DNA from: Alphaproteobacteria bacterium
GTDB taxonomy: Bacteria; Pseudomonadota; Alphaproteobacteria; MPNO01
Assembly (NCBI GenBank): GCA_964291675.2
Contig: OZ219866.1
Span: 3,008,001-3,072,000 of the forward strand
Direction of reading: 5' to 3'
DNA length: 64,000 nucleotides
Below, one piece after another: positions 32,467 through 55,027 of the stretch. A program made the translations under genes and the position numbers. The notes beneath the pieces were generated by a model. It was not told the origin of the DNA. It did no database searches and saw only the letters and a program-made list of their open reading frames with translations. Every line of letters begins with the position of its first letter. Position 1 is the stretch's first letter.

Positions 32467-32877
32467 TCAGCTCCAGACCTCCAGGCGCAACCCTCGAAAG
32501 CCCTCGAAATGCCGCTCATTTGTCGTGACCAGGAACAGGCCGTTGACATACGCGATGGCCGCGATCTGCCCGTCGACAATTGGCGGGGTCCTGCCCAGGG
32601 CGCTCAACCGCGCCCGCTCCCGCGCGTGCCAGTCCGCCGCGTCCCGGTCGTATTCCAGGACCGGGAAGCTGGGCAGAACGACGGTGTCCATATAGTGCTC
32701 GATCCTTTCACGACGCCGCGACGGAGGAAGGCGGGCGCAGCCGAAGCGCAATTCGTGCCAGACGGGGGCTCCGATCGCCGCTTCGTCCTCGATCTGGCGT
32801 AGACGGCGGACCACGCCCAGACTCGGCTTCGGCCGCAGAGGTTCCGATACGACGTTCGTGTCCATTAAGTACGTCAA
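32467..32877 (-). CDS. vapC: VapC PIN-domain toxin (N-terminal codons supplied by the island)
   Basis: YLMDTNVVSE, WHELRFG, DGQIAAIA and LVTTNERHF; no adjacent antitoxin. Confidence 0.88.
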   Translation of the reverse strand: MTYLMDTNVVSEPLRPKPSLGVVRRLRQIEDEAAIGAPVWHELRFGCARLPPSRRRERIEHYMDTVVLPSFPVLEYDRDAADWHARERARLSALGRTPPIVDGQIAAIAYVNGLFLVTTNERHFEGFRGLRLEVWS

Positions 32878-33124
32878 ATTCTGACCCCGATTCGGCCCCG
32901 TTTCACCCGTCGTCGCATGCCGCTCCCAGGGGGCGATGGCATGCGATAAGTGATTGTCTTGACGGGACTATTCCCCATTGCTACATTGCCCTCCAACTTG
33001 CCAAGCTGGCGATGAGGCCGTCAGACCACACGTCCACTGTTGCCGTCACCATGCTTTCTGTACGCTTACGGCTCTGCTACCGGAAGTCGCCGCGCAGAAG
33101 ACGCCCCGAAGGAGCCCCCGCACC

Positions 33125-33907
33125 ATGGCGGAACGCCAGTACCGCACCCTCACCAAGCGCACCGTGGACCGTCTCTCGGTCAACGGCAAGGACGCCGTCT
33201 TCTGGGACAACGAACTTCCCGGCTTCGGCGTTCGAGTGTACCCCTCCGGCAAGAAGGTCTTCGTCGTCCAGACGCGCGCCTTCGGCCGCTCCAGGCGCGT
33301 CAGCCTCGGCACCCATGGCGACACCGACTTCTCCGTCGACCACGCCCGCAGGAAGGCCACCGACGTCATCGCGCGCATCAAGGCCGGAGAGCCGCCCGTT
33401 GCTCCCGAGCCAGCGTCCGACCCGACCGTCGCCGATCTCGCCGAGCGTTACCAGCGCGAGTATGTCGCGATGCACTGCAAGCCGGCCACCATCTCGCATT
33501 ACCGCCTCATGCTCCGCAAGCATATCGTGCCGGCCCTCGGCAAGCGCCGCGTCGCGGACGTCGAGTACAAGGACATCCTCGCCTTCCACAACAGCCTGCA
33601 CCAGATGCCGACCGTCGCCAACCGGGCGGCCGACATCCTGGTCAAGATGTTCAACCTGGCAGACGGGTGGGGCTGGCGTCCCTCGGGCAGCAACCCGTGC
33701 CGGAGCGTGCCACGCTTCCGGGTCGAGAAGCACGAGCGGTTCCTCACCCGCGAGGAGCTGTTCCGGCTCGGCGAGGCGCTGCGGGCGGCCCCGGAAAGGC
33801 GCCTCGCCTCGGCCCACGCGGCGGCGGCCAAGGTCGCCGCCGTGCGGATATCCGACAGCCTCGAAGCCGACATGGACACGCCGCCGGACGGTTCCGCCAA
33901 CCTGTGA
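33125..33907 (+). pseudogene. Tyrosine integrase with in-frame deletion of the catalytic domain
   Basis: Arm-binding region (WDNELPGFGVRVYPSGKKVF) and core-binding region, then HAAAA joined directly to the C-terminal tail KVAAVRISDSLE; no R/HxxR/H/Y residues. Confidence 0.8.
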
Positions 33908-34048
33908 TCTACGACTGCACACCGCTCTTGTTTATCGCTCGCTCTGATTGACAGTACTTGTCCCGATCCTGCCGCGGCTGTCGAGATTCCGCCGAATTCT
34001 CGTCAGGGATGATAGGGTCAAGATGCAGTTCAACTCCGAAGTCATCCA

Positions 34049-34696
34049 ATGATCCTTGAGTTTCAGCAATGCGTTGTGACCGTGTATGGCTGTTTGGCTC
34101 CCGGCCGGTACACGCCCATCCTCGGTACAGGGTTCAGGCTCGGACGTCCCGACGTTGTCGTAACGGCCAAGCATGTTGTAGATGGAGGCTACAGCCGGTA
34201 TGCCGTGGCTGCCAAGAAGGCCAATGAAGTTCAAATCCAACTCGCGAAACGTGTAGAGTTCCCGGACGCTCCGGCCGATCTCGCTGTGCTCCTATTGGAC
34301 GGCGTATCCGATTCCTGGCAATGCTTCCGGCTTCTTGAGCTCGGAGACGGAAAGGACGCTCTGGGAGAACCCGTAGCATCGTTCGGGTATCCGGTTCACG
34401 ACAGTGATGCCTTCACGGCCCGATACATGGTCGGGCACATCCAACGTCAGTACCAGCACCAAGACGACGAACGCGAGGAGTCCTACTTCGCCTACGAACT
34501 CGGCTTTCCAGCGTTTCCCGGTCAAAGTGGGTCGCCCGTAGTTCTCCACGGGAACACCGCCGCCGTGCACCTCAACGCCCTCGCTGTCGTCACCAACAGC
34601 GTCGGTTACTTTGACCATCCATCTGCGGCCTCGTGGGCAATCGGACTGTCGCTCGCACCTTTCAGAGACTGGTTATCGTCGTTCGTTCCCTCGTAA
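34049..34696 (+). CDS. Trypsin-like serine protease
   Basis: TAKHV, DLAVL and PGQSGSPV catalytic triad motifs. Confidence 0.8.
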   Translation: MILEFQQCVVTVYGCLAPGRYTPILGTGFRLGRPDVVVTAKHVVDGGYSRYAVAAKKANEVQIQLAKRVEFPDAPADLAVLLLDGVSDSWQCFRLLELGDGKDALGEPVASFGYPVHDSDAFTARYMVGHIQRQYQHQDDEREESYFAYELGFPAFPGQSGSPVVLHGNTAAVHLNALAVVTNSVGYFDHPSAASWAIGLSLAPFRDWLSSFVPS

Positions 34697-34780
34697 CAGC
34701 CGAATACCGTTTGGCAATTGGCGCGAGGGCGAGGACCGGCGGCACGCAACCATCCGCCCAAGACCGCAGAGTACTTGGGA

Positions 34781-35070
34781 CAAACCTTCGCCTCGCGATT
34801 GCTCGCCCTCGGGGAGAGTCTCCCGATGATCGGGAAGCTGCTCGGTCACACGAAGGTGCAGACGACCGCGCGCTATGCACACCTTGGCCAGCACTCGGTC
34901 AAGGTCGCCGCCGCGAGAATCGCGGACAGCCTCGAAGCCGACACAGACACCCCGCCTGAAGTTTCCGCCGCCCCGTGATCTACGTCACACCTTCGCCTCC
35001 ACGGCTCTCGCGCTTGGTGAAAGCCTACCGATAATCGGAAAGCTCCTCAGTCACCGCGGTGTGGAGCCCG
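34781..35070 (+). pseudogene. Two tandem integrase C-terminal fragments
   Basis: TFASRLLALGESLPMIGKLLGHTKVQTTARYAH...IADSLEADTD, then DLRHTFASTALALGESLPIIGKLLSHR. Confidence 0.8.
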
Positions 35071-35904: not shown

Positions 35905-36702
35905 TCAATCGTCCGCATCGCATCGTCGTGCAAGGAAGGTGCATACGCCGCATGCGAGCGTCACAACGAGCTCGGCCTCGTCTGTGGATACCGGCTGGCC
36001 TTCGCGAATATGACGTCCGCGTTCTGAAGCGTAGCCCCAAAGCTTTTCGACAGCCGTGTCGAGAGGTGGAGTCAAATCCAGCTTCCGGACGAGGCGGCCA
36101 AGCGTGACGTTGCGCTCGCCTGTCACCTCGCGAGCGATGCATTCAAGGGCGGACATTGCATGCTGGATGGCGCCGGTCACGTCCGGTTCTGGCCTGCGCG
36201 AGATATCGTGCAATGCCTCCTGGATTTCCTTGGCGGCGGCGGTGTACCCGGTGTCAGCCAGCGTCTCGTCGGCCTGTCGGGTTGTTTCGGTAAAGGTGGC
36301 GGAGCCTCGATAAACGATATCCCCATCCGTCATCTGCCACCCAATACCCATTTCCAGAAAGACGTCATTAAGCTGTGCCTCGAACGCCTCTGCCTGGTCG
36401 GAAGAACGTTGTGCAAGGGCTACGTGCAGCGCTTCGGATATATCGTACACTCTGAACCAGGGGCATTCCGAAATGAGATCGTTCACCTCGTCGGCGACAT
36501 TTGGATACTCACTCCAGTTCGAGGGGTCTGGCCGCACACGCAGCGTGCGGCAGACGACACGCCGCATGGAAGCCGGCCTCATACCAAGGTCTTCAGCAAT
36601 CTGAGGAATGGCATCTCGCAGGCCTTCGGGCGCATCCTCGCGAACGTAGATCTCTCGTTCCGGGGCGCGATAGCCGTATCGGGCGGAAAAACGGGAACCC
36701 AT
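35905..36702 (-). CDS. AbiJ-like abortive-infection protein
   Basis: FSARYGY N-terminus, WFRVYDISE, A+SALE and LWGYASERGRH C-terminal motifs. Confidence 0.7.
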   Translation of the reverse strand: MGSRFSARYGYRAPEREIYVREDAPEGLRDAIPQIAEDLGMRPASMRRVVCRTLRVRPDPSNWSEYPNVADEVNDLISECPWFRVYDISEALHVALAQRSSDQAEAFEAQLNDVFLEMGIGWQMTDGDIVYRGSATFTETTRQADETLADTGYTAAAKEIQEALHDISRRPEPDVTGAIQHAMSALECIAREVTGERNVTLGRLVRKLDLTPPLDTAVEKLWGYASERGRHIREGQPVSTDEAELVVTLACGVCTFLARRCDADD

Positions 36703-36913
36703 TGTGCTCCTCCTAATCAATGTTTCGAGCCGGTTCCCTCGCCGCCTAGGGTACTATGCGTCCGTCACCACCCCCCTCGATCAACAACCGGAGAGAGGGA
36801 AGATCTTCACCGCTGCCCACGGCGCGCATCACTTGAGCCCTGGAGGCCAGCCTTCTGCTCGCTGTGAAGGCGCGCCCCTTCGCGAAGACCGATCCACTCC
36901 CAACGCCCAACTC

Positions 36914-39040
36914 TTAACAGCCATCTTCGACATCCTCGCTTGAAGCATCGTTGGGGTCGGTAGGCACGTTCTGCCAATCCCGAACTAATGGCTCCCAACC
37001 AGCACCTTCGACTTTACCTTTTCGCTCCTCGTTCAACCCCAACCAAACACCCCAAAAATCTGGGTCAGCAGAACGCGGCTGCTGATGTTCTGGCAAATCA
37101 TTCATCCTAACCATTACGGGCAGTTCCGATGCCCAACCAAGGAGAATCGCGGCCTGCGAGGGCAAAGATGGGAGTTCACGAAGCAATCCCCGTAGGCTAT
37201 CCGGTACCAAGCGGTGCACCAACTCTTGATCGCGGTCGTTGCTAATACGATGAAGAAGAAACGTATTACACTGTGACAGTACAGTTGGGGACAGTTCCGA
37301 TGGACGCTGAGACGAAAGCACAAGTCCCAGACCGAACTTCCTTCCTTCCCTAGCGATTCGTTCAAAAACCTGACAACAAATGGAAGATGCGTCTTGATTT
37401 TCAATATCTTCTCTGTACCGTTTAACAAACGTATGAGCCTCCTCCATTATCAAAACAGTGGGAAGTGTAGTTCCAAATACTCTTACATAACGCTGCAGTG
37501 CCTCAAAAATAATTCGCGCGATGACCGCCGTAACAACATGAATTACTTCGGTCGGTACTAGTGAAAGATCAATTATCGACACAGATGCCTGTTCACTACC
37601 TTCAGTACCCAAGTACTGATCCAGCCACGAATCCAAGGATACACCCTCAGAGTCGTCAATTACCGCTTTCATTTTCGGATCTGACAAGAGTGTTCTGATT
37701 CTTGCAACAAGGAAGTCCACAAACTGGGTGACATTCTCTTGCTGTGCAAGTATCTCAAGATGATCGGCCAGATCCGTTCCACGAAACGCCACTGGAACAT
37801 CTTCATCCGGTCCCTCTGGGTACGCAATTCCCCCTACTTGATTCAGGCAATCGTTCAAGGTTTCAATTATGGTTTCGACTTGATTCTCACTAAATGCTAC
37901 AAAATACTCAACTTTTTCTCCATCCTTTTCAAATCTCTTTATATTCGTTTTGCCGGCGTCAACTATCGCATCCAGCAATGACTCTAGGCCGTAGCCTGGA
38001 AACTGCTCCATTCTCGTCCGCAAGTCCGCAGCCATAGCTTTGAGTTGAAATCCAAACCTAGTACATTCGCTCGAAATTGCACCAGAGCGGAAGTCACGCC
38101 GGATAGTTATCAGCCTTGAAGAAAGGTATCTGCGCAACTCTAGATCTCTTTCCTCTTCTGTCTGTTCGCTGACACCCAGCCTTCCAGCCTTTACCTCACG
38201 CAATGCGCGCCGCAAAAGAGGCCTTTGTGTTCTTGCACTGGCTTGAGTAAATGAACTCCACTCGGCGCTATTCCAAAACCACAATGGCACCTTCAGGGGC
38301 AATTCACCATTACTCGCATCAACCCGAAATACTTTCGCACGGATTAGGGGATCCCGACGAAAGGCACGCGCATACTCACCGTTGGGGTCGAGAATGACGA
38401 ACCGAGCGTTCATCCCGCGGTCACACCGCGAATTTGTTGCTTGTTCTAAGCACCAACGCACGACGCCAGCGACCGAACACGACTTTCCACTTCCAGTATT
38501 CCCGAGAACAGCGAAGTGACGTCCGAACAGCCTATTCGGGTCTACCGCTACTTCAGCATCACCAGCCAACGGACTCGTACCGATTTTTACCCTGCGAAAT
38601 GCTCCAGACTCTACAATAGACCGGAGTTGCTTCTCGGTAGGCAGGATGACGGGCGAGCCAACCGACGGCAACGCGTCCGCACCACGCCGAAATTGATATT
38701 CTGCGTCTCCCTTGCACGCCCTCAACGTACCAAGTGGATTAAGTCGAAGTCGTCGAAGTGGATATGGCAAGTCCACCAAGCCAAAATCCTGCATTCCTCG
38801 CCGCTTAGGAAACGGAGAACGTTCGACCGCTAGCCATTCCACTTGGCCGACCAAAAAAGCCTCATCTACAGACACAAGAAGATAGCTGTTTACTCTAGGA
38901 AATGACCTAGGTGTCCCGGAGTTCAGTGCCACTGAATCCGGAGCTTCCACATCAAGCGCAACCTTGATTTCGTCAGGCGAGACAAAGTCTACTGTTCCAA
39001 CGCGGAAACTGCCAGCGTACTCAAAGGGAGGCTGCGTCAC
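36914..39040 (-). CDS. herA: HerA-family ATPase of a SIR2-HerA system
   Basis: RHFAVLGNTGSGKS, LDPNGEY, MEEAH and IAREGRKFG..SQRPSELS. Confidence 0.9.
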   Translation of the reverse strand: MTQPPFEYAGSFRVGTVDFVSPDEIKVALDVEAPDSVALNSGTPRSFPRVNSYLLVSVDEAFLVGQVEWLAVERSPFPKRRGMQDFGLVDLPYPLRRLRLNPLGTLRACKGDAEYQFRRGADALPSVGSPVILPTEKQLRSIVESGAFRRVKIGTSPLAGDAEVAVDPNRLFGRHFAVLGNTGSGKSCSVAGVVRWCLEQATNSRCDRGMNARFVILDPNGEYARAFRRDPLIRAKVFRVDASNGELPLKVPLWFWNSAEWSSFTQASARTQRPLLRRALREVKAGRLGVSEQTEEERDLELRRYLSSRLITIRRDFRSGAISSECTRFGFQLKAMAADLRTRMEQFPGYGLESLLDAIVDAGKTNIKRFEKDGEKVEYFVAFSENQVETIIETLNDCLNQVGGIAYPEGPDEDVPVAFRGTDLADHLEILAQQENVTQFVDFLVARIRTLLSDPKMKAVIDDSEGVSLDSWLDQYLGTEGSEQASVSIIDLSLVPTEVIHVVTAVIARIIFEALQRYVRVFGTTLPTVLIMEEAHTFVKRYREDIENQDASSICCQVFERIAREGRKFGLGLVLSSQRPSELSPTVLSQCNTFLLHRISNDRDQELVHRLVPDSLRGLLRELPSLPSQAAILLGWASELPVMVRMNDLPEHQQPRSADPDFWGVWLGLNEERKGKVEGAGWEPLVRDWQNVPTDPNDASSEDVEDGC

Positions 39041-40078
39041 GTTGTGCCCCCATCATCGTCGACGGCGGAGACGTTGCCCTGTTGACGTTCGGAGCTGTCA
39101 GCAGTGCCCCACCGCCCTCTCAGCAGCTCCGCCATTCGGAACGTGGTGCGATCAATTGCAGGTTTTGGAAGGAAGTGGTCTACCAAACTCTCTAGGTCAC
39201 CTAGATGGTCCCCTAGAAGAAGAGAAATTTGAGCATGCCTCCCCAATCTCTCGTAAGTCCGCATTATCCTTCCTAGAGGATCACTGAAAGCAATGATTAC
39301 CAGATGTGTCGAGGGTATTGTCAACATATCCTCAATCACCCGATTTATATGCTCATCTCCAAAACTATAGCCGTAGCAGAAAACCGTGCTGTTCGGGCGG
39401 CAAATGGATGCTGCAAAGTCACGGAACAACTCTACGTAGGGATATGCTGCTGTTTCTCGGTCCTTTGCAGCATTGGGATAGATCATGAACTGGCGCGCAT
39501 CCACTCCATATCTTGTGTACATAGACAAAAAGGGAGCCGTACTCTTAGCACCGAATGGCAATCCAATTCGGCGAATTGCGTCACCGAAATCCAGCCAGTC
39601 CACCGATCCATGTAGTTTAGTGAATCTGGCTACACCCTCCAGGTATCGGGGCTCGCCTCTGATGCCAGGTGGGTTGTAGTGTAAATCTACATCCAGGCGC
39701 GATGCGCGAAATACGGGTGCAAGCGTTCCCACAAATCGGTCAATCAGTCTAAGTCCGGCAACATCCGCTCCTGCCTCAAGGTATCGATCATAGTTTGTCG
39801 TGAATATATTCAATCTTTCCCGTGTCCCCGAGCGACTGGCAAAACTCATCAAGAAGCTCACAAGATAATTGAATGCAAGATCACGTTTCTCCAATGCACA
39901 TCCAATTAAGTTATTCTCTCCCTCTAATATGGAGGCAGTAAAGGTCTGAAGCAAATTAGACAAATCCTTGTTCAAATTGGCTAGGGTCTCTTGTTCCGAA
40001 GATTCTTCTGTACCGCTTGACGAAAGTATCTCCAAGCCACGGATAAGTTCATTTGCCACGCGGATTTGATCTTCTATG

Positions 40079-41528
40079 GGTCGTGTCCCCAGACGTGGTG
40101 TAGGAGCTCTGGCCTTGGTTTGTAGCTGTGGGTAAGCAGCGCGCCGCCGCGACCGCCGCGAGTCTGGCGGCGGCGGGCTGCTTATCCACAGCGGAGGCCA
40201 TCGCGGTTCCGGTTTAGGGTTGGGTCGTGCAACGCCAACCCGAACCTGAGGAGGAACCGCGATGACCGACGACATGATGGCCCTGCGCGGGCTTTTGGAG
40301 AAGAGTTCCGACGCCGATCTGCTGCGCGAGATGATCGGCTTCTCGGCCGAGCGTCTGATGGCGCTGGAGGTGGAAGGGCTGACCGGCGCCGCCCATGGCG
40401 AGCGCACGCCGGAGCGGATCACGCAGCGCAACGGCTACCGCGAGCGGGCCTGGGAGACCCGCGCCGGCACGGTGGCGCTGAGGATCCCGAAGCTCAGGAC
40501 GGGGAGCTACTTCCCCGGCTTCCTGGAACCGCGCCGGATGGCCGAGAAGGCACTCACGGCGGTGATCCAGGAGGCCTACATCCAGGGCGTGTCGACGCGC
40601 TCGGTCGACGACCTGGTGCAGGCGATGGGGATGTCGGGCATCTCCAAGAGCCAGGTGTCCAGGCTGTGCGCCGAGATCGACGACAAGATCGAGAGCTTCC
40701 TCGACCGGCCGCTGGAGGGCGAGTGGCCCTATCTGTGGCTGGATGCGACCTATATCAAGATGCGCGAGATCGGGCGCATCGTCCCGGTCGCGGTGACCGT
40801 CGCGGTGGCGGTCAACGACCAGGGCCGGCGCGAGGTGCTCGGCATGGCGATCGGCCACTCCGAGGCCGAGACCTTCTGGACCGCCTTCCTGCGCGCGCTG
40901 ACCGGCCGCGGGCTCAAGGGCGTCAAGCTGGTGATCTCCGACGACCACAAGGGGTTGAAGGCCGCCGCGACCCGCATCCTCGGCGCCACCTGGCAGCGCT
41001 GCCGCATCCACTTCATGCGCAACCTGCTGGCCCATGCCGGCCGTCAGGGAAGGCGCGTCGTGTCTGCCTTCGTCGCCACCGCCTTCGCCCAGGACGACGC
41101 CCAGGCCGCGAGCGCCCAGTGGCGCCTGGTCGCCGACCAGCTCAGGCCCAAGGCGCCCAAGCTCGCCACCCTCATGGACGACGCCGAGCACGACGTCCTC
41201 GCCTACATGACCTTCCCCAGGGAGCACCGAACCAAGCTCCACTCGACCAACCCCATCGAGCGGGTCCATGCCGAGATCAAGCGCCGAACCAACGTCGTCG
41301 GCATCTTCCCCAACGAAGACGCCGTCACCCGCCTGGTCGGCGCCATCCTGCTCGAGCAGAACGACGAGTGGGCCGTCGCAAGGAGATACATGACACTGGA
41401 ATCCATCGCTCAGACCAGCGACAATCTCACCGTCAAGCCGCCCGCCGTGGCAGCCTGACCCTACCGGCCCAACACGCCGGATACCGCGATCGGCGCCGGG
41501 CTCTTACACCACGTGGCGGGACACGATC
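40079..41528 (+). mobile_element. IS256-family insertion sequence
   Basis: Terminal IRs G(G/A)TCGTGTCCC..ACGTGGTGTA; 8-bp TSD CTTCTATG at 40071-40078 and 41529-41536. Confidence 0.92.
40262..41458 (+). CDS. IS256 (Mutator-type) transposase
   Basis: [26 protein letters not shown] and STNPIER. Confidence 0.95.
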
Positions 41529-42897: not shown

Positions 42898-43589
42898 CCG
42901 GTCGGATTTTCGGCCCGGCCCGGCTCACGGATCGCTTGTGACGACTCAACCTTATTCGCGGTTCCGCACCTCGTATAGATAAACCCGGCGCGCCCTTCAC
43001 GTCTGGAAATCACGCCGGCCCCCTTCGCCCGTTGTCGACATGGCGATCTCCATCGCCCGGACGCCGCCACGCGTCCCTCAGGCGACAGGAATCTGGCCAC
43101 CTTCATCCGCTGAGCCGCAAGGAGGCGGAGCCCGGCGGGGGCCGGTCGAGACGCGCCCGCCCGAGCGAGGCGTCTCGCCGCTCAACGTCATGAGCCGGCC
43201 GGTGTTCGACGAGGACGGCACCGCGACGCCGAGACGCCCGCCCGAAGGCCCGGTGCCGGGCGCCGCCAGCCAGAGGGCCGACACGCGCCCGATGCCCGCA
43301 AGCGCCCCGATGGTCCCGGCGAGGCCCGCGTTGGCATCCCCATCCTCGCCTGCCCCGGACAACGATCCGGGGGATACCGGACGCGCGGCCTCGAAGACGA
43401 GCGCCGCGAGGCGCGGACCCCGCCAGGTCTCGATGAGCGTCAGGCCGGTCGGCGCCGTCCTTCCGCCCGCATGGATTGCGTAGCCGGGCAGCACGTCCCG
43501 CCGGGCCACCGCGCGCACCAGCTTGACCAGCGCCGCCACATGCGGCTCGCCCGCGAGCGCCGGCATTGCCGGTCCGGAGCCCGCCGCGA

Positions 43590-44299: not shown

Positions 44300-45413
44300 T
44301 CTGAAGAAGGGCGCGGTCTGTGCCGCCCTGCTGCTGGCGCTGGCCGCGCCCGCCTCCGCCGACGTGCTCTCGGAGATCGCCGAGACCATGGCCAAGCTCC
44401 GGGCGCTGGCGCAGTGGGTCAACAGCCAGAACCTCAACTCCTGCGAGACCGCCCAGGCGCTGGTCGGCGCGGCGTGGTCGAAGAACGACCGGGCGAGCGC
44501 GTCGATCTGCGCCGCCATCGGGACTTCCCAGGGTATCTTCTCGGACTATGCTGCCGCCAAGCACGGCTGCGGCGCCGACGGCAAGCGCCACTCGACGCTC
44601 GCCGCCGCCTCGGGGCCGATGGCCGACCAGGTGCCGGTCAACGTCAACTACGCCTGGAAGGCGGTCCGGGCGTCCTCCTTCCTCGCCGGCGACACCCAGC
44701 TTGCCGAGTTCGCCATGGCGGTCACCGGCACGGTGATCGTCACCGCGCCCACCTCGGACGGCGATACCTCCGGCCCCCGCGTGCGGATTCTCGAACCGCT
44801 GGCGCTCGACCGCCGCGTCACCGAGACGCTGATGGAGGGCGGCGGGGCGCTCCCGGTCTACCGCTGCGACGAGAGCACGCGCTGCCTCAACCCGGCGCTG
44901 GGCACGGCGACGGTGCCGCCCAACCGGGGCTTCCGGGCGCGGGTGGCGGCGCTGCTGCGCGACATGGTCGACGCGGTGCGCACCGACACCGCCGTGCCCG
45001 CCCCCGCGCTCGGGCTGGTGAACCTCACCACGCTGCCGGTCTACCGGGTCGCCAACGCGGCGGCGGCCTACCGGGGCGCCGTCATCGACCAGGAGATGGA
45101 CGCGCTGGCCGAGGCCGTGGCGCTCGACGTGATGCAGGTGTGGCTCACGGACCTGCACCGCACGGTCGAGGAGCGCGCCGGGACGCTCGACATCGCCGAC
45201 GGCGAGCAATTGCGGCGCTGGCGCGAGGGCCTGCGCGCCAACCGCGTCGCGCTCGCCCGGCACCGGAACGAGGGGCTGGCGCGCTTCAACACGGCGTTGG
45301 CGGTGGTCGAGAAGCTGCGGCTGATCGAGACCGAGCTCGCGGGCGCGCTCTCGGCCGATCTGCGCGCGGCATTGGCCTTCGCGCGCGGCGGCGCCGGGGC
45401 GGGGTCGCGGTAG
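44289..45413 (+). CDS. traH: TraH-like conjugal pilus assembly protein (probably internally deleted)
   Basis: Signal peptide joined directly to NSQNLNSCETAQALVG; VYRCDE..CLNP. Confidence 0.65.
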   Translation: MTIDLKKGAVCAALLLALAAPASADVLSEIAETMAKLRALAQWVNSQNLNSCETAQALVGAAWSKNDRASASICAAIGTSQGIFSDYAAAKHGCGADGKRHSTLAAASGPMADQVPVNVNYAWKAVRASSFLAGDTQLAEFAMAVTGTVIVTAPTSDGDTSGPRVRILEPLALDRRVTETLMEGGGALPVYRCDESTRCLNPALGTATVPPNRGFRARVAALLRDMVDAVRTDTAVPAPALGLVNLTTLPVYRVANAAAAYRGAVIDQEMDALAEAVALDVMQVWLTDLHRTVEERAGTLDIADGEQLRRWREGLRANRVALARHRNEGLARFNTALAVVEKLRLIETELAGALSADLRAALAFARGGAGAGSR

Positions 45414-46636
45414 ACCGTCCGGCCCTCGCCAACGAGGCCGGCAACTACAACGTCGCCGTCACGGGCAAGTCGGGCTCGGGCAAGTCGGTGCTGATGCAGG
45501 AGCTGGTCACCGGGCTGATCGGCGCCGGCGGCGAGGCCGTGGTGATCGACGACGGGCGGTCCTTTCAGCACACCGCCGAAGCCCTGGAGGGCGCGTTCAT
45601 CGCCTTCGGCAAGGACCCGGCCTGCCTCAACCCCTTCGCCATGATCGACGCCGGAACCGCCAATCACGACGGCGACTACCGCGAGGAGTGTTTCGCCATG
45701 CTGGCCGGCGTCATCGGGCGCATGGCCCGGCGCCGGGGCTCGATCGACGACATCGAGGCGGCGCTGATCGCCGAGGCGATCGCGGCGGCCTGGGACGAGG
45801 CCGGCAACGACGCCGATCTCGGCACGGTCAGGAAGAACCTCGAAGCAAGGGACGACCGCCGCGCCGCCGACATGGCGACCTCCCTCGGCCCCTGGTGCCC
45901 GGGCGGCGCGATGGGGAGGCTGTTCGCAGAAAGCAACGTCCCCGATCTGGAGAACGCGCTCACGGTGTTCGAGCTCGCCGAGCTCAAGGGCCGGGGCGAC
46001 GTCCAGGCGGTGGTGCTGATGCTGGTGGTCTTCCTCGCCACCCAGCGCATGTATCACGGGCCGCGCACGCGGGCGAAGGCCATCGTCATCGACGAGGCCT
46101 GGGACCTGCTCTCCGGCGAGGACAGCAAGGCGTTCCTCGAGGGCGCCGCGCGGCGCGCCCGCAAGTACCGCGGCGCGCTGATTACCGGCACCCAGTCGGT
46201 CAACGACTATTACGCCAACCCCGCCGCAAGGGCGGCCTGGGAGAACTCGGACTGGACGATCTTCCTCGCCCAGAAGGACGAGTCGGTCGAGCTGCTGAAG
46301 TCCGAGAAGCGCATCCACTGCGATCCCGGCATGGAGCGCGCGCTGAAATCTCTCACCACCGCGGACGGCCGCTATGCCGAGCTGGTGCTGCACGGCCCGG
46401 ACGGCTGGCGCGTCGCGCGCCTGGTGCTCGACGCCTGGTCGGTGGCGCTGTTCTCGTCGCGCGGCCCGGCATTCGCGGCGGTGGAAAACCTGAAGGCGCA
46501 GGGGCTGAGCACTGTCGAGGCCATCGACCGGATTGCCGGGGGCGCGCGCCCCGCAGGGGTCGTTCGCCCCGGGGACGCGGCCGGTCCTGCCTCTGCCGGA
46601 CATTCCGAAACGACCGACACGGGAGAGCGCCCATGA
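45414..46636 (+). pseudogene. traC: TraC/VirB4 C-terminal ATPase fragment
   Basis: NYNVAVTGKSGSGKS, VIDDGRS, IDEAWDLL and RRARKYRG; N-terminal half and start codon absent. Confidence 0.8.
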
Positions 46637-47265: not shown

Positions 47266-47491
47266 CCGGCGCCGGCCCGCGGCGAACGGCATCGCCGTGG
47301 AGCGGGACGCGGAGACGGTGTTCCGCGCCGCCATCCTGGCGGGCGTTCTGTCGGCCGAACCGGGCGCGCGCAACTGGGCGGGCCACTACCTCTACATGTT
47401 CCACGACGAGGACGGCACCGCCTGGTTCAAGCACCGGGACACCCGCGCCCATGTGAGGATGACCGCGCGGCGGGCGGGGAACGCGGCATGA
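47249..47491 (+). CDS. Hypothetical protein
   Basis: YLYMFHDEDG..FKHRDTR; coupled to both neighbours. Confidence 0.5.
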   Translation: MRPRPDRRRPAANGIAVERDAETVFRAAILAGVLSAEPGARNWAGHYLYMFHDEDGTAWFKHRDTRAHVRMTARRAGNAA

Positions 47492-47865
47492 GCGAGCTTC
47501 GCCTGCTGGCCTGCGCCGTGCTGCTCTCGGGCGGCGTGGCGGCGGCGGTGGCCGCGGCGACGGTGCGGCTTGCCGCGCCCGAGGCGCCGCGCATCGCGTC
47601 GGTCCGTCTCGGGGAGATGACCGCGGCCTGGACGACGCGCGCCGCGGCGGATGGCCGGACCGCCGAGGACGCGCGCGCCTGGGGCGGGGCGCTGGAGGCC
47701 GCGCTCGGCCGGGTGGCTGAAACGCATCGCGTCGTTCTCCTCCCGGCCCGGGCGGTCGCCGCCGGGGCGCCGGACCTGACGCACGAGGTCGAGGCGGCGC
47801 TCGCGGCGGTGCTCGCGCGCGGCCGGACGGACGGCGGCGTGCCGGTCCCGGGAGGCGGGGAATGA
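47488..47865 (+). CDS. trbI: F-type TrbI-like protein
   Basis: N-terminal TM segment and VVLLPARAVAAGAPDLT motif; position after traC. Confidence 0.65.
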   Translation: MSELRLLACAVLLSGGVAAAVAAATVRLAAPEAPRIASVRLGEMTAAWTTRAAADGRTAEDARAWGGALEAALGRVAETHRVVLLPARAVAAGAPDLTHEVEAALAAVLARGRTDGGVPVPGGGE

Positions 47866-48125
47866 CCGCGCGGCGCCGGAAGATCGGCCTCGCGGTCATG
47901 ATCGCGCTGGCGGCGCTGTGGCTGGGCGCGGCCTCGCGCGTCCACGTCAATGCGAGCTGGTCGGACGAAGCCTGGGGCTACGCCGCCTTCCCGCTGTTCG
48001 GCGAAGAGCCGGCGGTCGGCGACCGGGTGCTGTTCGAGCCGCCCGATGCGGTCGAATCCCCGGTGCCGTATCTCAAGACGGTGCGCGGCGTGCCGGGGAT
48101 GCGCGTGACGGTCGGAGAGCCGGAC
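47862..48125 (+). pseudogene. S26 signal peptidase (TrhF-like) N-terminal fragment
   Basis: VNASWS...YLKTVRGVPGMRV, then homology ends at the junction with the convergent FN3 gene. Confidence 0.6.
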
Positions 48126-48129
48126 CGAG

Positions 48130-49490
48130 GTGCCGGCGGACCAGCCCGGATCGGAACTACCGATAATTGCAGCACCCCCAATCGAATACTCTGTCGTGCC
48201 GACGCAGAACTTCAGGGCACGAAGTGCAGTATTTGCTGGAATAGGAGTAAACGCGGCTTGCAGCGGGTTGCTCGCAGGGGGATTGAAGTCAGCCACGACA
48301 GTGAAACTATAAGTCGTGCCGCCGACCGTGAACTCGTTGTCAGATAACAGTGAGTTGCATTGAGCTTGAGTTACGCAGCCAACGCCTCCGCTGCCTGAGG
48401 TAAACGCCTGCGGCGTCAGCGTCGCGCACCAGATTTCGCCGGTCGCCAGGGTGCAGGCGGCGGCCGGCATGCCCGTGTCGACGACCCAGTCGCTGTTGCC
48501 GTTGGCGTTCACCGCGCGCACCCGCACCCGGTAGGGCGTGCCGTTGGTCAGGCTCGAAATCCGATGCGAGGCCGCCGTGCCGCTGTGGCTGGCGTCCACC
48601 CAGCCCGCGGATGCCGCGCCCGTGGTCACCGCCGCGTCGTTGGCGACCGTGCCCGAGTCCGCCGAGGTGTAGTGCACGTCGTAGCCCGTCACCGTCCCCG
48701 ACGGCGCCGTCCACGACAGGTCCAGCTTCGTGTCGCCCGCCGAGACGTTCAGCCCCGTCGGCGCGGCGGGCGGGTCGGAGGATCCGGACTGCGCCGCCGA
48801 GCCGTTGACGCGGATTCTGTAGGACTCGCCCGACAACAAGGTCCTGGCGGGGTTGCCATAGTAGCTGCTGTTCCCGACGCTCCAGCCTGTGGCGGCTCCC
48901 GAATCCTCATTGCCCGAAGTCGTCGTCACCAGACTCAGACTCGAGCCTGCGCTAAAGAAGGGAAAGTACAGGAAATACGTGGTGTCCGCGGCAAGCGTGG
49001 TGCCCGAAGGCGCCGCGAACGCGACGTTGACGGTGCCGGCGGCGCTGCCGAGGGTCGACGGGACCGTCAGGTCCGCGATTTTCTCGTTCGGCTTCCCGAT
49101 GTTCGTTCCACTGTCGAAAGCGGACCAGAGCTGCGCCTTCACGTTATTGCGCTGTCCGGTGGTCAGGGCGGTGTATGTCCGAATCCTCGCCTCGATGCTC
49201 TCGAGGGTATAACCGTCGGCGTTGCTTCCGGTCGTGAAGCCCTGCGCGCGCGCGATAGTGAATCGCCAGTTGGAATCTAGGCCCGCCGTCTGCCCGATGT
49301 TGCTCACCAGCACGTCGGCGGCGGCCGGCGCGGCGGCGAAGGGGGAGAGCGCGCCGAGCAGCAGCGCGAGGGCGGGGAGGAGTAGGGAGAGGCGGGCGCA
49401 GCGGCGCCCGGGACGCGGGTCAGGCCTGCGCGGAGACTCTGACGGGGAAGCCGGCTTGCGCGCGCCGGCCGGGCGCCGGGCGCAGGTCAT
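48130..49490 (-). pseudogene. Secreted fibronectin type III-domain surface protein, 3'-truncated
   Basis: Signal peptide ...AAPAAA-DVLVSNIGQ; FN3 motifs PAAPTGL..LSWTAP..GYDVHY..LTNGTPYRVRVRAVN; the frame runs on into antisense tra sequence. Confidence 0.65.
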
Positions 49491-49725
49491 GCCGCTGGGC
49501 CGCTGGGCCGCTGGGCCGCTGGGCCGCTGGGCCGCTGGGCCGCTGGGCCGCTGGGCCGCTGGGCCGCTGGGCCGCTGGGCCGCTGGGCCGCTGGGCCGCT
49601 GGGCCGCTGGGCCGCTGGGCCGCTGGGCCGCTGGGCCGCTGGGCCGCTGGGCCGCTGGGCCGCTGGGCCGCTGGGCCGCTGGGCCGCTGGGCCGCTGGGC
49701 CGCTGGGCCGCTGGGCCGCTGGGCC
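49491..49725. repeat. 9-bp tandem repeat (GCCGCTGGG) x ~26
   Basis: Perfect array read directly from the sequence. Confidence 0.95.
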
Positions 49726-49727
49726 AT

Positions 49728-49785
49728 TATACCCGCCCGAGGCGGGGGCCGGTGTCTATACCCGCCCGAGGCGGGGGCCGGTGTC
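49728..49785. repeat. 29-bp tandem duplication with promoter-like boxes
   Basis: TATACCCGCCCGAGGCGGGGGCCGGTGTC x2; minus strand shows TTGACA and TATAAT, but at non-canonical 21-bp spacing. Confidence 0.7.
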
Positions 49786-50140
49786 AAGCCCCGGGCCGCA
49801 TCCTCGCGGCTCTCGTCGATGGTCCCGCCTTCACGCGCAACCGCGAACACGGCGGCGCGCGCCCGCGCCACATCGGGCCTCTCAAGCCGCATCGATTAGC
49901 TCCATACTCAGTAAACGCCGATCGGACGGGCAGCCATGCCCGCAAGGCTTTCTATCACAACGACCGCGTGGTAATTGTACGGTTATCGAGGAATTTCATT
50001 TGGATTTCGTTGATGTCGGAAAAAAATTATCTGCCGCATCCGCCGCCCGGGCCGGCGGCCCGGTGCGGGCGCCGCCGGGCATCGCGGCCTGCGGCTTGCC
50101 TGGCCCGCCCGCGCCGTCGTCCGCCACCGGGGAGAAACGC

Positions 50141-50685
50141 GTGAAGAGCCGCGAAGAACTCGAACGCGCGAACGAAGAGCTCGAACGCGGGAACGAGGTT
50201 CTGGAGGAGCGCATCTCGATGCTGAGCGCGGCCGTGCTGCGCCTCGGATCGAGCCTCGACCTCGCCACCGTGCTGCAGGAGGCCGCCGACAGCGCCCGCG
50301 CGCTCTGGTCAAGCCCTTCTCGGCGACCGAGCTGACGGCGCGCATCCAGGCGGCCTTGCGCAAGCACGCCGGCCCGGAGACCTTCGTCCTCGGCGACCTC
50401 GCCGTCCACTACGACGAACGGCGGGTCACGGTGGGCGGCCGCCCGGTGCCGCTCACCGCCACCGAGTTCGACCTCCTGCGCCTGCTGACGCTGAACGCGG
50501 GCCGGGTCTCGACCTACGAATCGCTGATCCGGCAGCTCTGGAACGGGCCGGACGCCGCCGAGCCGGCCCGGGTGCGCACCTTCGTCAAGCAGATGCGGGA
50601 CAAGCTCGGCGATGACCCGAAACGGCCGGCCTGGATCCTCAACGTGCGCGGCGTCGGCTACCGCGTGCCGAAGCCGGACGAGTAG
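50141..50685 (+). pseudogene. Hybrid sensor/response regulator remnant (N-terminal coiled coil + OmpR-type winged helix)
   Basis: SSLDLATVLQEAADSARAL joined out of frame to KPFSATELTARIQAALR...LTATEFDLL...NVRGVGYR. Confidence 0.7.
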
Positions 50686-51303: not shown

Positions 51304-52353
51304 ATGTACGAGGACGACCTGACGACAGTGACAAGGGCAATTGAGCAGTCAAATGACTACAGAAAATGTCCAGTCTGGCCGATGGAAGAAGTACGCTGCT
51401 ATCCGTCTGCGGCCCGTGGCGAGCTCCGGATATACTTCAATTCGCCTCGGGCTGGGGGAATATTCTCCGTTCCTTCTTTCGACGCTAACGAGAATTTCCG
51501 TATTGATTGCGCGGAGGAGCAAAGAAGGAAGATTTCCCGTTGGGTTTACGACCAAAACAAACACGCGAGGATACCCCATCTAGATCCTGATGAGATAGAG
51601 AGCATTTCTCGGCAGCCCTTCCTGCCAGTTGAACAACGGCTGGACAGGTTTCTTCGTGCTCTTCGGGACAAACTTCCCGGGTATCCATCGGATCCAATTG
51701 AGTTGCCGTTCGATTCGGACATCATGAACACTATTCGAGCATCCACGGAAAGTGGTTCCGACTACTACGATCTTGACTGGTTAGCATCAGAAGCTGCAAA
51801 GGCGGGACTGGTAAGGGAGCCAAAGGACAAAGCCTACGCACTCACTCTCGAAGGAATGAAACGACTGGAGGGCCAAGGATACGGTCAGTTGTCCAATCAA
51901 GCGTTTGTTGCCATGTGGTTTGATGATGAGGTCAAAGCTGCATATGACGACGGAATCGAGCCAGCCGTAAAAGATGCTGGCTATAGAGCGGTTCGGATAG
52001 ATAGGAGGGATTTTCTCACAAAGATTGATGACGAGATAATTGCAGAAATTAGAAGGTCACGATTTGTTGTTTGTGACTTTACATGCCGTTTGATAAGAGA
52101 CAAGTCACAACACATAGATAACGCACGCGGCAGTGTCTACTACGAGGCTGGATTCGCCCATGGACTGAATATCCCCGTGATTTTCACTTGTCGCGATGAT
52201 CTGCTCAAGTATGTACATTTCGACGTAAATCACTATCCGACCATTACATGGAAGTTTCCGCAGGACATTCGTAAACCATTGCGAGACCGAATCACCGCTG
52301 TTATCGGAGATGGGCCTGCCTTTGAGGACGGATCAGCGCATACTGAGAGATAG
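51304..52353 (+). CDS. Protein with C-terminal nucleoside 2-deoxyribosyltransferase/TIR-like domain
   Basis: QAFVAMWF, KIDDEIIAEIRRSRFVVCDFT and SVYYEAGFAHGL; low GC. Confidence 0.75.
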   Translation: MYEDDLTTVTRAIEQSNDYRKCPVWPMEEVRCYPSAARGELRIYFNSPRAGGIFSVPSFDANENFRIDCAEEQRRKISRWVYDQNKHARIPHLDPDEIESISRQPFLPVEQRLDRFLRALRDKLPGYPSDPIELPFDSDIMNTIRASTESGSDYYDLDWLASEAAKAGLVREPKDKAYALTLEGMKRLEGQGYGQLSNQAFVAMWFDDEVKAAYDDGIEPAVKDAGYRAVRIDRRDFLTKIDDEIIAEIRRSRFVVCDFTCRLIRDKSQHIDNARGSVYYEAGFAHGLNIPVIFTCRDDLLKYVHFDVNHYPTITWKFPQDIRKPLRDRITAVIGDGPAFEDGSAHTER

Positions 52354-52874
52354 AATTCGCCAATGCCGTCAGCCACCCGCCCTCTAGATCGGTCGGCTGC
52401 TGGTGCTCATGCGGCATGCGGAGACCGTCGCCGGGGCGGTCGAGATGACCCTGTACCTGCCGACCCTGCCGTCGTGGTTGTTCGCCGCTTCACCGCCCAT
52501 GCGTCCAAATCCAGCCTGCGATAGGCCACACGGTTGCCGAGGCGGTAGAAGGCAGGGCCGTCACCACTCACGCGGTAGCCGCCCAGCGTGCGATGCGAGA
52601 GTCCAAGGCGATTCGAGCAAGAACGACCAATCCCCAGGCCGAAAGGCGGACCAAATCCTCCTCCAACTTACGGACGCGCGGGCTACCCTTGGCGCAGGAC
52701 AACAGACCGCTGACCTGTGGAGTAGAGTGCAAAGACCCTGGCAACGCCGTACATTTCGCATCCACCGGCGGTATCGTCTATTGCACCTACAGAGGCCATT
52801 CTCCAACGTCGGCAGAACCATCTCTACACCGCTTGGCAAGCGCACCGAACAGTGTTTACTGGAGACATCAGGAC

Positions 52875-53723
52875 ATGGCAGACAGACCATTCGACGCCGT
52901 GCCGGAAGGCGTGGAATTCCTCCGCTTTTCAGAACGCAACCATAGAAACTGCGCTGTTGAGACTATGCGCAACGTCGCAGTACTTCCAAGTTCGGTGCGG
53001 AAAACACTCGACGACGTCGGCACTTTGCTTTCGCTCCTTGACCAAATGGCTTCATGCCTCTGGGGGTGTCGTGGGGGAAGCCACGCGATAGAGCATCTGG
53101 TCGGTCGCTCCGTGAGTTCCGCCCTCGCTTCATTTCGTCTAATCGAAATGGGACACTATGACGAGGCATGGGCGATAACACGCAATGTCGCGGAAGTCGG
53201 TAACCTTATGTGGCTATTCTTCGTCGATCCGGACGAGCTTCATTCCTGGCTACGATTGTCCGCACGAGAGCGTCGCTCCAAATTCCGCCCGGTCGTAGTT
53301 CGAGAAAGGATCGAAGCGGCCAACAGCGTTGTGCCACATGACCGCGACTCGTACTCGCTCATGAGTGAAGTTGGAGTTCACCCGAGTCCAGAAAACACAC
53401 CTCATGCAAGGCACAACGCATACGGTATTCCCACACTCGGCGGATACTATCAGGAACGCGGCTTTGTCGAGTCCCTCGCTCAGCTCGCATGGGCGATTGC
53501 TTCCGTAGGCGGTCCAGCCGCAAGAATGGCGAATATTGACGACAAGTATGAAACGAGGATTGTCGATCTTGCAACCAACCTTGTGCGGGAATTGCCGAAT
53601 TTGCCGGGAAGTGATGAAACAACCGACACATCAGAGGCTCTTCTCGCGAGGAGTAACTTCATCGATAGCCGATTTCGGAAAGTGCACAGCGCTGCGCGTA
53701 AGCCGGATGACGCAACAAAGTAG
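52875..53723 (+). CDS. Hypothetical helical protein (DUF5677/HEPN-like)
   Basis: AWAITRNVAE and YSLMSEVGVHP motifs; AGGA RBS before ATG 52875. Confidence 0.5.
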   Translation: MADRPFDAVPEGVEFLRFSERNHRNCAVETMRNVAVLPSSVRKTLDDVGTLLSLLDQMASCLWGCRGGSHAIEHLVGRSVSSALASFRLIEMGHYDEAWAITRNVAEVGNLMWLFFVDPDELHSWLRLSARERRSKFRPVVVRERIEAANSVVPHDRDSYSLMSEVGVHPSPENTPHARHNAYGIPTLGGYYQERGFVESLAQLAWAIASVGGPAARMANIDDKYETRIVDLATNLVRELPNLPGSDETTDTSEALLARSNFIDSRFRKVHSAARKPDDATK

Positions 53724-54009
53724 CAATGCGAGAACTTGCTTTCCCATTCCCATGGTGATGTTCGGGGCGGGTGGAAGAAGCCGGCGTAGGCGCCCCCGGG
53801 GATAGCGCGGCCCCTCCCGCGTCGGCTCAGTCAATACAGCACCGTCGCATGTTGGGCACGCGTACGTAAGGCACCATATCTCGGATCACCGCCCGTTATG
53901 GATAGAGGTGCGCACCGGCGGGCAGTAGGGGCTGCTCAATCACACCGCGCGCGAATCCTCGTTCACTGGTGAGCGGGACGGCAAGCTGTCTCCGCGCTTG
54001 CTTCCGCGC

Positions 54010-54231
54010 TCACGTTTTGCCGAGCCTGTCCGCCTCCGCCGTCGTGGTCGCCCGGCGCCGAGTCGCCCACGCGTCCAGATCCGGCCGGCGATACCGCACC
54101 CGGTTGCCGAAGCGGTGGAAGGCCGGCCCGTCGCCGCTCACGCGGTAGCCATCCAGCGTGCGGGGCGAGAGGCCGAGCCAGGCCGCCGCGCGCCGGGTGT
54201 CGAAGAAGCCGCCCGTGTCGTCGTCGTTCAT
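54010..54231 (-). CDS. Excisionase/AlpA-like HTH protein
   Basis: DTRRAAAWLGLSPRTLDGYRVSGDGPAFHRFGNRVRYRRPDLDAW. Confidence 0.8.
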   Translation of the reverse strand: MNDDDTGGFFDTRRAAAWLGLSPRTLDGYRVSGDGPAFHRFGNRVRYRRPDLDAWATRRRATTTAEADRLGKT

Positions 54232-54697
54232 GGTGCCCCCCGTTCGATTGCCGGATGTTCCGGACCCGCTGCGCCGCCGGCCCGGTGCCGGCCGCCTGCG
54301 GCCATGCCAGGAGATGCCGCTCCTGCCGGCCGCAACGCGCGCCAGCGCAGCGAAGGTAGGCGGAGCCGCCGGGGTTTTCAAAGCGCGCGGTTAGGGGCCT
54401 TCCGGCAAGGTCACGCCGTGTGGATCAGTGCGCGCGCTCACGCGCGACGGCGCCGACTCCGGCCGCCGGAACGTCCTCGTCAGCGTGCCCGGCACCCTTC
54501 GGCCGCATCCGGGAAGGCCCGGCCCAGGATCAGGGCGCCGGCAAACGGCAAGCTTTGGGGCATCCTACATCCAGGGGGCATGCGCGTTCGCTGCGGCGGG
54601 CGGTTTCGGAGTCCGATCGCTCTCTGGATGCTTACGGGGCTCGATTCGTTTCGGAGGGAATGTCGAAAAAGGTTCAGTATTACGGTAGGTTACGGAG

Positions 54698-54742
54698 CTA
54701 TTGAGAGTTTTCTACAACGTGCGTGTCCAGCAAGTACCGCAC
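54698..54742 (-). pseudogene. vapC: Original 5' end of vapC left behind at the island junction
   Basis: GTG 3 nt after the antitoxin stop; reads MRYLLDTHVVENSQ*. Confidence 0.8.
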
Positions 54743-54745
54743 GGC

Positions 54746-55027
54746 TCACAGCGACACGTCGCGGCCCGGGCTCCTGTCCCGCACGTCCCCGAACAGCTCG
54801 TCCGGGTCGAGATCGAGTTCGGCGAGGTCGGTCGTCTCCAGGAATTCCCGATACGCCGCCGCGAAGCCGCGCCGCTTCCCGGCAAGCCGCTTGAACTGCC
54901 GGTGGCCGACCAGCACGGCGACCGGTTCTCCGCGCCGCGTGAGCTCCACCGTCTTGCCGTTCTCCGCCTCCCGGATCAGTCGCGGCAGGTTGCGGCGCGC
55001 ATCGGCGATGGAATGCTTCTCGGTCAT
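54746..55027 (-). CDS. Phd/YefM-family antitoxin
   Basis: SIADARRNLPRLIREAENGKTVELTRRGEPVAVLV; upstream GTACA...TGTAC operator-like palindromes (about 55039-55057). Confidence 0.88.
   Translation of the reverse strand: MTEKHSIADARRNLPRLIREAENGKTVELTRRGEPVAVLVGHRQFKRLAGKRRGFAAAYREFLETTDLAELDLDPDELFGDVRDRSPGRDVSL

Follow-up and report, generated by a model that had tools for sequence, protein, structure and literature searches.

A decayed island splits a Phd/YefM–VapC operon in an alphaproteobacterium and probably represents an integrase clade that targets the 5′ ends of PIN toxin genes

Integrases are normally tied to one conserved site, for example a tRNA gene, dusA or prfC, and the SXT/R391 elements supply a new promoter and 5′ coding sequence to prfC. 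Here we describe an island that lies within a vapC toxin gene of an Alphaproteobacteria bacterium. It occupies part of a 64,000-nucleotide stretch (assembly GCA_964291675.2, contig OZ219866.1, positions 3,008,001 to 3,072,000; the whole stretch is called the window), where it separates the PIN-domain toxin gene of a toxin–antitoxin (TA) operon from its Phd/YefM antitoxin gene. We conclude that the interval is very probably the decayed remnant of a site-specific island from a clade with two tandem integrases, int1 and int2, that uses the 5′ ends of PIN genes as its bacterial attachment site (attB). A related architecture has been described for islands and prophages specific to dusA. According to Farrugia et al. 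(2015, PMC4482086), the integrase of these elements lies beside the 5′ end of the target, the element provides a new 5′ end in which the first β-strand is replaced, the old 5′ end is left at the far boundary, and the two junctions, attL and attR, are imperfect direct repeats. SXT/R391 elements in the 5′ end of prfC are mentioned in PMC3318190, and a subgroup of IntSXT-type integrases with an N-terminal DUF4102/arm domain is described in PMC8138268.

The window island resembles the dusA islands in the placement of its integrase, the remnant at its far boundary, its imperfect repeats and its use of a conserved coding motif as target. It has the features of a 5′-end replacement island, in that relatives carry an empty attB (found also for a second island, in genome G008), its arm contributes the start codon with the first residues of the protein, and the old 5′ end stands at the far boundary. 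However, the target is a PIN gene and not dusA. Whereas dusA is a single-copy housekeeping gene, the clade of the window island targets many diverse toxin genes, several per genome, and a window-type insertion splits a two-gene operon and comes with two tandem integrases. With SXT/R391 the island shares site-specific insertion into the 5′ end of a protein gene and an integrase with an N-terminal arm domain, but SXT/R391 has one essential gene as its target, a single integrase plus Xis and a full conjugative element, whereas the window island contains only fragments of transfer genes. Replacement of a 5′ end is an architecture that is already known from the dusA islands and from SXT at prfC. 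As far as we have searched the literature, what is new is the PIN/vapC toxin superfamily as a target class: a full-text search found no account of attachment sites in PIN or vapC genes, although they may be listed in TIGER/Islander target tables or in supplements.

At the right-hand junction, the antitoxin gene (54746–55027, minus strand; 93 aa; PF02604, E 7e-12; NCBIfam phd_fam) ends in TGA, and a stub open reading frame (ORF) of 14 codons (54698–54742, minus strand) starts 3 nt after this stop. Its translation, GTG-RYLLDTHVVENSQ, reads GTG-RYLLDT|HVVENSQ, in which the original 5′ end of vapC is joined to the right arm of the element. The rest of the toxin gene lies 21.9 kb from the antitoxin as a hybrid vapC of 136 aa (32467–32877, minus strand; PF01850, E 9e-9), which matches the NCBIfam VapC models below their cut-off. 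The hybrid protein begins TTG-TYLMDTNVVSEPL; codons 1–7 (TTG-T-Y-L-M-D-T) come from the element arm and the overlap region, and the remainder is chromosomal. The antitoxin, the stub 3 nt beyond it and the orphan vapC had been pointed out in a sequence-only reading of the window, all of whose sequence statements hold. The 25-bp direct repeat that it reported at the two junctions is likewise present (attL, 32848–32872; attR, 54713–54737), one base below where a literal reading of it would place the repeat.

The attL and attR 25-mers differ at four positions and agree at the other 21. When the 120-bp neighbourhoods of both junctions were shuffled 300 times by mononucleotides, the best match between 25-mers averaged 14.7 and peaked at 18, so that 21 was never reached. 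Both repeats contain the core CGTGTCCA (32857–32864 and 54722–54729), which is the reverse complement of the L/M-D-T codons, and the likeness of the arms reaches about 10 nt on each side of it. Measured core to core, the island is 21,865 bp long and is inserted between vapC codons 7 and 8. Its GC content is 47–60% over much of the interval, compared with about 70% in the flanks. The overlap region of tyrosine recombinases is 6–8 bp long, and the region common to both window junctions, TGGACACG, being bounded by mismatches on either side, fits an overlap of this kind. In three other junction pairs, the common region is 6–8 bp around GAYAC.

We searched 60 relatives with the window VapC and antitoxin and compared the matching places with the window flanks. 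Orthologues of the two proteins are encoded side by side in four genomes: G009 (86% identity for VapC and 90% for the antitoxin), G010 (81% and 87%), G001 (72% and 80%) and G016 (73% and 75%). In G009, G010 and G001, both window flanks align to a single stretch at 84–94% identity with nothing in between, and the two genes are 9–12 nt apart. The alignments to G009 cover the left flank (window 30490–32871) and the right flank (54714–62330) at 92–94% identity and overlap by 23 bp; G010 shows the same pattern with an overlap of 16 bp, and in G001 the two flank alignments stop 28 nt apart, around the junction. G016 has only the TA pair in common with the window, without the flanks. The antitoxin-side junction tracks the intact site to the D-T codons and then diverges, and the vapC-side junction does the converse. 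The sequence-only reading had proposed that the island sits in the D-T codons of vapC, that it split a TA operon and that the element arm rebuilt the toxin N terminus, and had suggested a search of related genomes for the empty site. All three proposals are borne out: the operon is uninterrupted in relatives, the empty site occurs with both flanks in three genomes, conservation falls sharply at the D-T codons, and the junctions agree with the empty sites. The possibility that it had named against itself, that antitoxin and vapC were never adjacent in relatives, is countered by their adjacency in four genomes.

Other relatives have lost the toxin gene at this locus. In G005 (L046, 8363–9725) and G007 (L047, 79–1444), the antitoxin directly adjoins the left flanking gene and vapC is absent, which leaves an orphan antitoxin. 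The syntenic locus of G008 (L045, G008:C1, ~8578–11742) keeps the antitoxin and the head MRYLLDT and lacks the vapC body. This second, independent break comes after the same ACG codon as in the window and leads into 3.1 kb of unrelated low-GC DNA, in which three ORFs have no Pfam match; the first 303 nt of this DNA have no other occurrence in 21 genomes.

A survey with the N-terminal part of the window integrase as query found 56 loci in metagenome-assembled genomes labelled Alphaproteobacteria, Gammaproteobacteria, Binatia, Bryobacterales, Thermodesulfobacteriota/Syntrophobacterales and Spirochaetia. We kept the 51 loci that have both the 5′ end of int1 and DNA upstream of it, setting aside L095 and L096 (int2), L102 and L103 (tail fragments) and L064 (no upstream DNA). 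At 32 of the 51, an ORF of at least 100 aa lies on the opposite strand and starts 213–362 bp upstream of int1. These 32 ORFs (L068 was counted among them by eye) begin start-x(2-4)-D-[T/A/P]-[N/H], with mostly hydrophobic x and a start codon borne by the element. The same kind of beginning stands on a short or disrupted frame at five further loci (L062, L066, L081, L093 and L097), and 14 loci have no such beginning.

When the window VapC was added to the 32 ORFs, 30 of the 33 matched PF01850 and 11 matched PIN_3; two of the three that lacked PF01850 were L054, which has no Pfam match, and L059, a CheW/response-regulator protein. The 33 ORFs fall into 21 clusters at 60% identity or more, with a median pairwise identity of 23%, and the PIN bodies are 9–38% identical in most pairs. 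In 15 close elements aligned on the D-T codons, mean identity is 81% over 90 nt on the element side and 37% over 90 nt on the PIN side; in the window, this conserved left end of the element comprises the 247-bp spacer between attL and the integrase gene (32878–33124). Within the 33 ORFs, D6 is invariant, T7 is found in 31, N8 in 30, E42 in 32 and D102 in 30. More distant integrase subfamilies (64–71% identity) have other arms, encoding MSFLLDT, MSCLLDT, MFTLLDT, VLLIDT, VIAIDT or MRCLMDT, and an in-frame start codon stands 3–6 codons before the Asp in every arm type seen. These results support, well outside the window too, the earlier suggestion that vapC genes, being widespread, serve the element as attB, and the test proposed for it, which was to locate the att sites of homologues of the integrase at 33125, led to PIN-gene 5′ ends in most loci.

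As a control, we considered four integrase loci of 46–50% identity in the window's own genome (G000), none of which adjoins a PIN gene. They comprise two tandem pairs (C1:185479–187356 and C1:1120073–1121939) and two apparently single genes (C2:28291–28968 and C2:118669–119340; L111–L116 together). Tandem P4-like integrase pairs seem to make up a broader group that has several classes of target.

The far ends of related islands complete the picture of the split gene. With the last 300 bp of the window island as query, we found five right ends in three genomes, G008, G062 and G064. All five carry a stub of the form xxxxDT|(H/D)(V/I)VG(N/S)..., which continues into the arm of the element; four of these stubs reach a stop codon within the examined stretch. 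An antitoxin gene precedes the stub in four of the five right ends and belongs to one of three families: PhdYeFM (L104 and L105), MazE/AbrB (L106) or an Rv0623-like family that falls just under the Pfam cut-off (L108). Together with the re-headed genes, the stubs at the far ends show that the two arms of the element, read together, resemble the head of a PIN gene. The fifth right end, L107, has the stub LHLLDT|HVVGNALKVSN* without an antitoxin gene upstream. It lies at ~185.3 kb of G062:C2, 4.7 kb from L105 (~180.7 kb) in the same orientation and is the inner copy of the two; the arrangement may represent tandem or nested islands.

In G008, the island separates a PIN gene from a Phd antitoxin gene by 37.8 kb. 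Homologues of this pair are 10–13 nt apart in G004, G011 and G002 (80–83% and 89–90% identity) and are also adjacent, at lower identity, in G022. The G008 toxin is only 19% identical to the window toxin, and the G008 locus thus demonstrates an empty site for a second time, at a TA pair unrelated to that of the window. In G006, homologues of the G008 pair are on different contigs (C2:488740–489096 and C15:430408–430656), and the PIN match lacks the first 9 residues; this split pair may be another occupied site.

The integrase gene of the window island (33125–33907, plus strand) encodes a remnant of 260 aa, in which int1 residues 1–235, spanning the arm-binding, SAM-like and central domains, are joined in frame to the C-terminal 25 residues of int2. 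Pfam matches in 32978–33907 are Arm-DNA-bind_3 (E 1e-10), Phage_int_SAM_3 (E 2e-7) and Phage_int_M. Compared with the full-length relatives at L048, the remnant is 93% identical to int1 (394 aa) over residues 1–235 only, and its last 25 residues are 84% identical to int2 residues 374–398. Both L048 proteins match Xer-type models over residues ~108–378, with HDLRH...ARYAH readable. The window gene therefore has the arm-binding and SAM-like domains of a P4/IntSXT-like tyrosine recombinase and lacks the R..HxxR..Y catalytic domain. The fusion reflects a deletion of the int1 catalytic domain and nearly all of int2, and with the catalytic domain deleted the window copy is unable to excise by itself. 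Two other copies of the integrase pair in the window's genome are likewise truncated. One element of the same family, on another contig of that genome (L110, G000:C1:13175–16714), has a truncated int1 (94% identity, residues 1–180) that adjoins another vapC (~2290–2700). The product of this vapC is 40% identical to the window VapC, is re-headed as MYLMDT and has its fourth Asp intact.

Most related loci have int1 and int2 in tandem. In this they resemble the GInts and Tn554, which also have several tandem tyrosine recombinase genes at one island end and insert site-specifically; Tn554 encodes two recombinases. The GInts have three integrases and GinD, prefer ssb, have imperfect repeats and include unrelated elements that converge on ssb (PMC5385486). 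The window clade differs from them in having two integrases, both with arm-binding domains, and another target class; the ORF that follows int2 in L048 and L119 has no Pfam match, and no ginD-like gene was identified there. A further comparison is offered by an integrase clade specific to prophage late genes (PMC10111431), which disrupts its target without replacement, although the same paper gives as a general rule that attP usually carries a replacement for the target segment. Like these elements and regulated gene integrity elements, the window clade repeatedly targets one class of protein gene; unlike them, its islands keep the ORF and break the operon.

Several observations weigh against the reading that the window island comes from a clade dedicated to PIN-gene 5′ ends. 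No full-length PIN-like ORF is present at 19 of the 51 loci, and two insertions appear to be off target: the element arm heads the CheW/response-regulator gene at L059 (1834–2751, minus strand; tested with Pfam) and, as judged by eye, the start of a gene similar to short-chain dehydrogenases (SDR-like) at L076 (~2700–2790). Certain targets from different phyla share 60% identity or more, so these PIN genes may themselves be mobile. In G062 and G064, far ends were paired by position and orientation only. For the window integrase itself, Pfam found no catalytic-domain match. A scan of 32700–33200 with a sigma-70 consensus, applied to a genome of 70% GC, found no promoter match facing vapC, which leaves expression of the hybrid toxin unsupported. 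A 28-nt degenerate pattern that joins the left and right arms, strict and modelled on one subfamily, had 0 matches in genome_contigs and 0 in metagenome_contigs; with neither an excised form nor attP found, recombination by int1 and int2 is inferred and not seen.

Two explanations would do away with PIN genes as targets. If the PIN gene were cargo, carried with the integrase as a module, the N termini would be alike through common descent of PIN genes, and this would suit the presence of a PIN gene beside the integrase at 32 of 51 loci and the cross-phylum identities of at least 60%. However, the PIN body is chromosomal in both the window and G008, where it adjoins the antitoxin gene in island-free relatives (in the case of the window, together with the flanks); at the D-T codons, an identity of 81% gives way to one of 37%, PIN bodies are mostly just 9–38% identical and the original heads are present at the far ends. 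We therefore regard the cargo explanation as highly improbable. The chance that two decayed, unrelated vapBC loci came to lie at these positions, or that RecA-type recombination joined two PIN 5′ ends without a site-specific integrase, is close to negligible. Some likeness is indeed to be expected where both junctions encode PIN N termini, but the 21/25 match was unreached in 300 shuffles, synteny is exact in three relatives, and the same junction position recurs beside one integrase clade in many genomes. Moreover, homologous recombination would have had just 25 bp to work with, four of them mismatched, which is very short for such a process.

What the insertion does to the toxin is a separate matter, on which two further explanations differ. 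One is a recombinational switch or hijack of the toxin: integration would place the gene under an element promoter and uncouple it from the antitoxin, and excision would couple the two again, so as to regulate or stabilise the island or to tune a TA stress or defence response. In-frame starts kept in all arm types despite the divergence of the arms suggest that the hybrid toxin is translated, the catalytic residues of re-headed toxins are mostly intact (D6, E42 and D102 in 33, 32 and 30 of 33), and so are the far-end antitoxin genes. Nevertheless, the 247-bp left end contains no promoter-like site towards the toxin, excision would restore the operon at no penalty and thus offers no obvious addiction logic, and the deleted window integrase and the His at the fourth acidic site are as expected for a split toxin that is not under selection. 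A switch of this kind is unlikely. The other explanation holds that the insertion neutralises host TA modules, for example ones that act on incoming mobile DNA, and that the intact ORF is a by-product of the likeness between attP and attB. It would fit the loss of the native promoter and of translational coupling (the antitoxin stop and toxin start are 3 nt apart in the intact operon), the lack of a promoter match facing the toxin, and an arm likeness of ~10 nt on either side of the core, as core-type binding sites require. Against it, the 9–18 nt between start codon and Asp codon place the starts at the margin of the attL–attR likeness or outside it, and yet they are kept in every arm type; and with as many PIN genes per genome as the 9 matches to the window VapC in its own genome indicate, little would be gained by silencing one. 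We think neutralisation quite unlikely. A broader proposal, in which a cross-phylum two-integrase clade uses the 5′ motif that encodes the active site throughout the PIN/VapC superfamily as a degenerate, multi-copy att site and re-heads toxin genes with a start codon and upstream DNA of its own, for an element-controlled, reversible rewiring of TA systems that serves island maintenance or TA-based defence, is tentative and in our view doubtful.

The junction anatomy, the empty sites, the recurrence over 21 PIN clusters and the antitoxins with stubs at far ends are observed features, and for the int1–int2 clade we propose a mechanism that would link them. The family is characterised by tandem P4-like tyrosine integrases at the left end, and its attB would be the DNA for the first β-strand and first catalytic Asp of PIN (VapC) toxins, with the motif hydrophobic-hydrophobic-D-T-N/H. 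Int1 and int2 would catalyse exchange within the D-T codons. The integrase-side arm carries an in-frame start codon, three or four residues and D-T, so that integration yields a toxin ORF of full length whose head is encoded by the element. The head that the gene had before remains behind the antitoxin as a stub of 14–26 codons, with its stop codon in the other arm of the element. The arms probably resemble PIN heads because core-type binding sites lie there, and conservation of the start codon suggests that the hybrid toxin is translated. Each insertion would part the toxin gene from the antitoxin and its promoter. For the element, the benefit may be a plentiful, dispensable and widely shared landing site: since PIN genes are numerous, dispensable and have one motif in common, they would offer the clade many places to land in each genome and a wide range of hosts.

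The toxin target of the window is like a canonical VapBC system in being a Phd/YefM–VapC operon with a 3-nt gene spacing and in having D6, E42 and D102. Unlike such a system, it has 21.9 kb between its two genes, a foreign head on the toxin and His (His123) as the fourth acidic residue, with Gly113 at the position of a conserved Asp; the antitoxin gene is immediately upstream of vapC in G009, G010, G001 and G016 and not in the window. In all four orthologues from these intact operons, Asp is found in the ..xDF.. motif and in VND, as against His123 and Gly113 in the window. Across the 33 targets, the fourth acidic column holds D in 22, E in 3, I in 3, A in 1 and H in 1 (the window), with one gap. 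The window toxin shows signs of decay, and His123 together with the broken integrase suggests a fixed, decaying insertion. The window copy is a dead remnant of the element.

This integrase clade appears to recognise a short coding motif of a large and diverse toxin superfamily, which would give it a host range across several phyla. Orphan vapC genes, and orphan antitoxins with stubs, are common puzzles of genome annotation, and insertions of this type offer a natural explanation for orphan vapC genes and for orphan antitoxins followed by tiny PIN-like stubs. If excision also takes place, chromosomal TA operons would routinely be split and re-joined by mobile DNA. For a class of defence-carrying islands, the arrangement provides a delimiting rule, namely an integrase pair followed by a re-headed PIN gene at one boundary and an antitoxin with a stub at the other. 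It also raises the question of whether re-headed toxins are expressed, and who gains from it. In the search for predictable-site integrases in uncultured bacteria, a pair whose target is degenerate and defined at the level of a motif may be of interest.

The interval as a whole is a decayed, defence-carrying island. Its right end (54440–54721) shares 72% identity over 54445–54644 with the corresponding end of the G008 island, and shorter parts of it (41–148 nt, 72–90% identity) are matched by another four right ends, in G062 and G064. An HTH_17 gene (AlpA/excisionase-like; 54010–54381, minus strand; E 1.7e-7) lies 330 bp from this end, and the same Pfam family is also present in the G008 island. 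At the left end, the one sigma-70-like promoter match (32959–32987, plus strand) points towards the integrase. The left end also contains the inverted repeat GGCATGCGA at 32913/32938. The 9-mer CCAGGGGGC is the only one common to both ends, each of which has small repeats of its own; followed by ATGCG, it occurs near both ends (window 32913–32947 and 54571–54584), its left copy lying within GGCATGCGA. These repeats could be arm-type integrase binding sites, but the signal is weak and does not allow a call.

Fragments of F-type conjugative transfer genes (TrbC, TraF, TraH and a TraG-type P-loop ATPase) lie in overlapping frames at 43078–46636 and are a decayed transfer module. The window has only these fragments in place of the complete type IV secretion system (T4SS), coupling protein and relaxase of an integrative and conjugative element, and the window ORFs scanned gave no relaxase match. 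In the G008 island, no T4SS family is among the 25 listed of the 27 families found for its 27 ORFs.

The cargo includes a HerA gene (36914–39040, minus strand; PADLOC E 8e-254) and a SIR2 gene (39037–40431, minus strand; PADLOC E 4e-132), adjacent with a 4-nt overlap as expected of the SIR2–HerA anti-phage defence pair. The 5′ end of the SIR2 gene overlaps a gene for an IS256/Mutator-family transposase (40262–41458, plus strand; Transposase_mut, E 1e-119; the two genes span 39037–41458), and the match to the PADLOC SIR2 model begins only at its position 96; the IS256-family element may have cut the defence gene. A protein with an AbiJ N-terminal domain (35905–36720, minus strand; PADLOC PDC-S32) is a candidate defence gene, and a trypsin-like peptidase (34049–34696, plus strand; Trypsin_2, E 7e-12) has weak PADLOC matches to PDC-M35A and LmuA-like models. 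The remaining genes encode an fn3 protein (47427–49892, minus strand), a winged-helix regulator (50356–50685, plus strand) and a DUF5677 protein (52593–53723, plus strand). A low-GC ORF of 349 aa (51304–52353, plus strand) has no Pfam match and a weak PADLOC match to a TIR effector (E 3e-8), and this TIR-like ORF may be further defence cargo.

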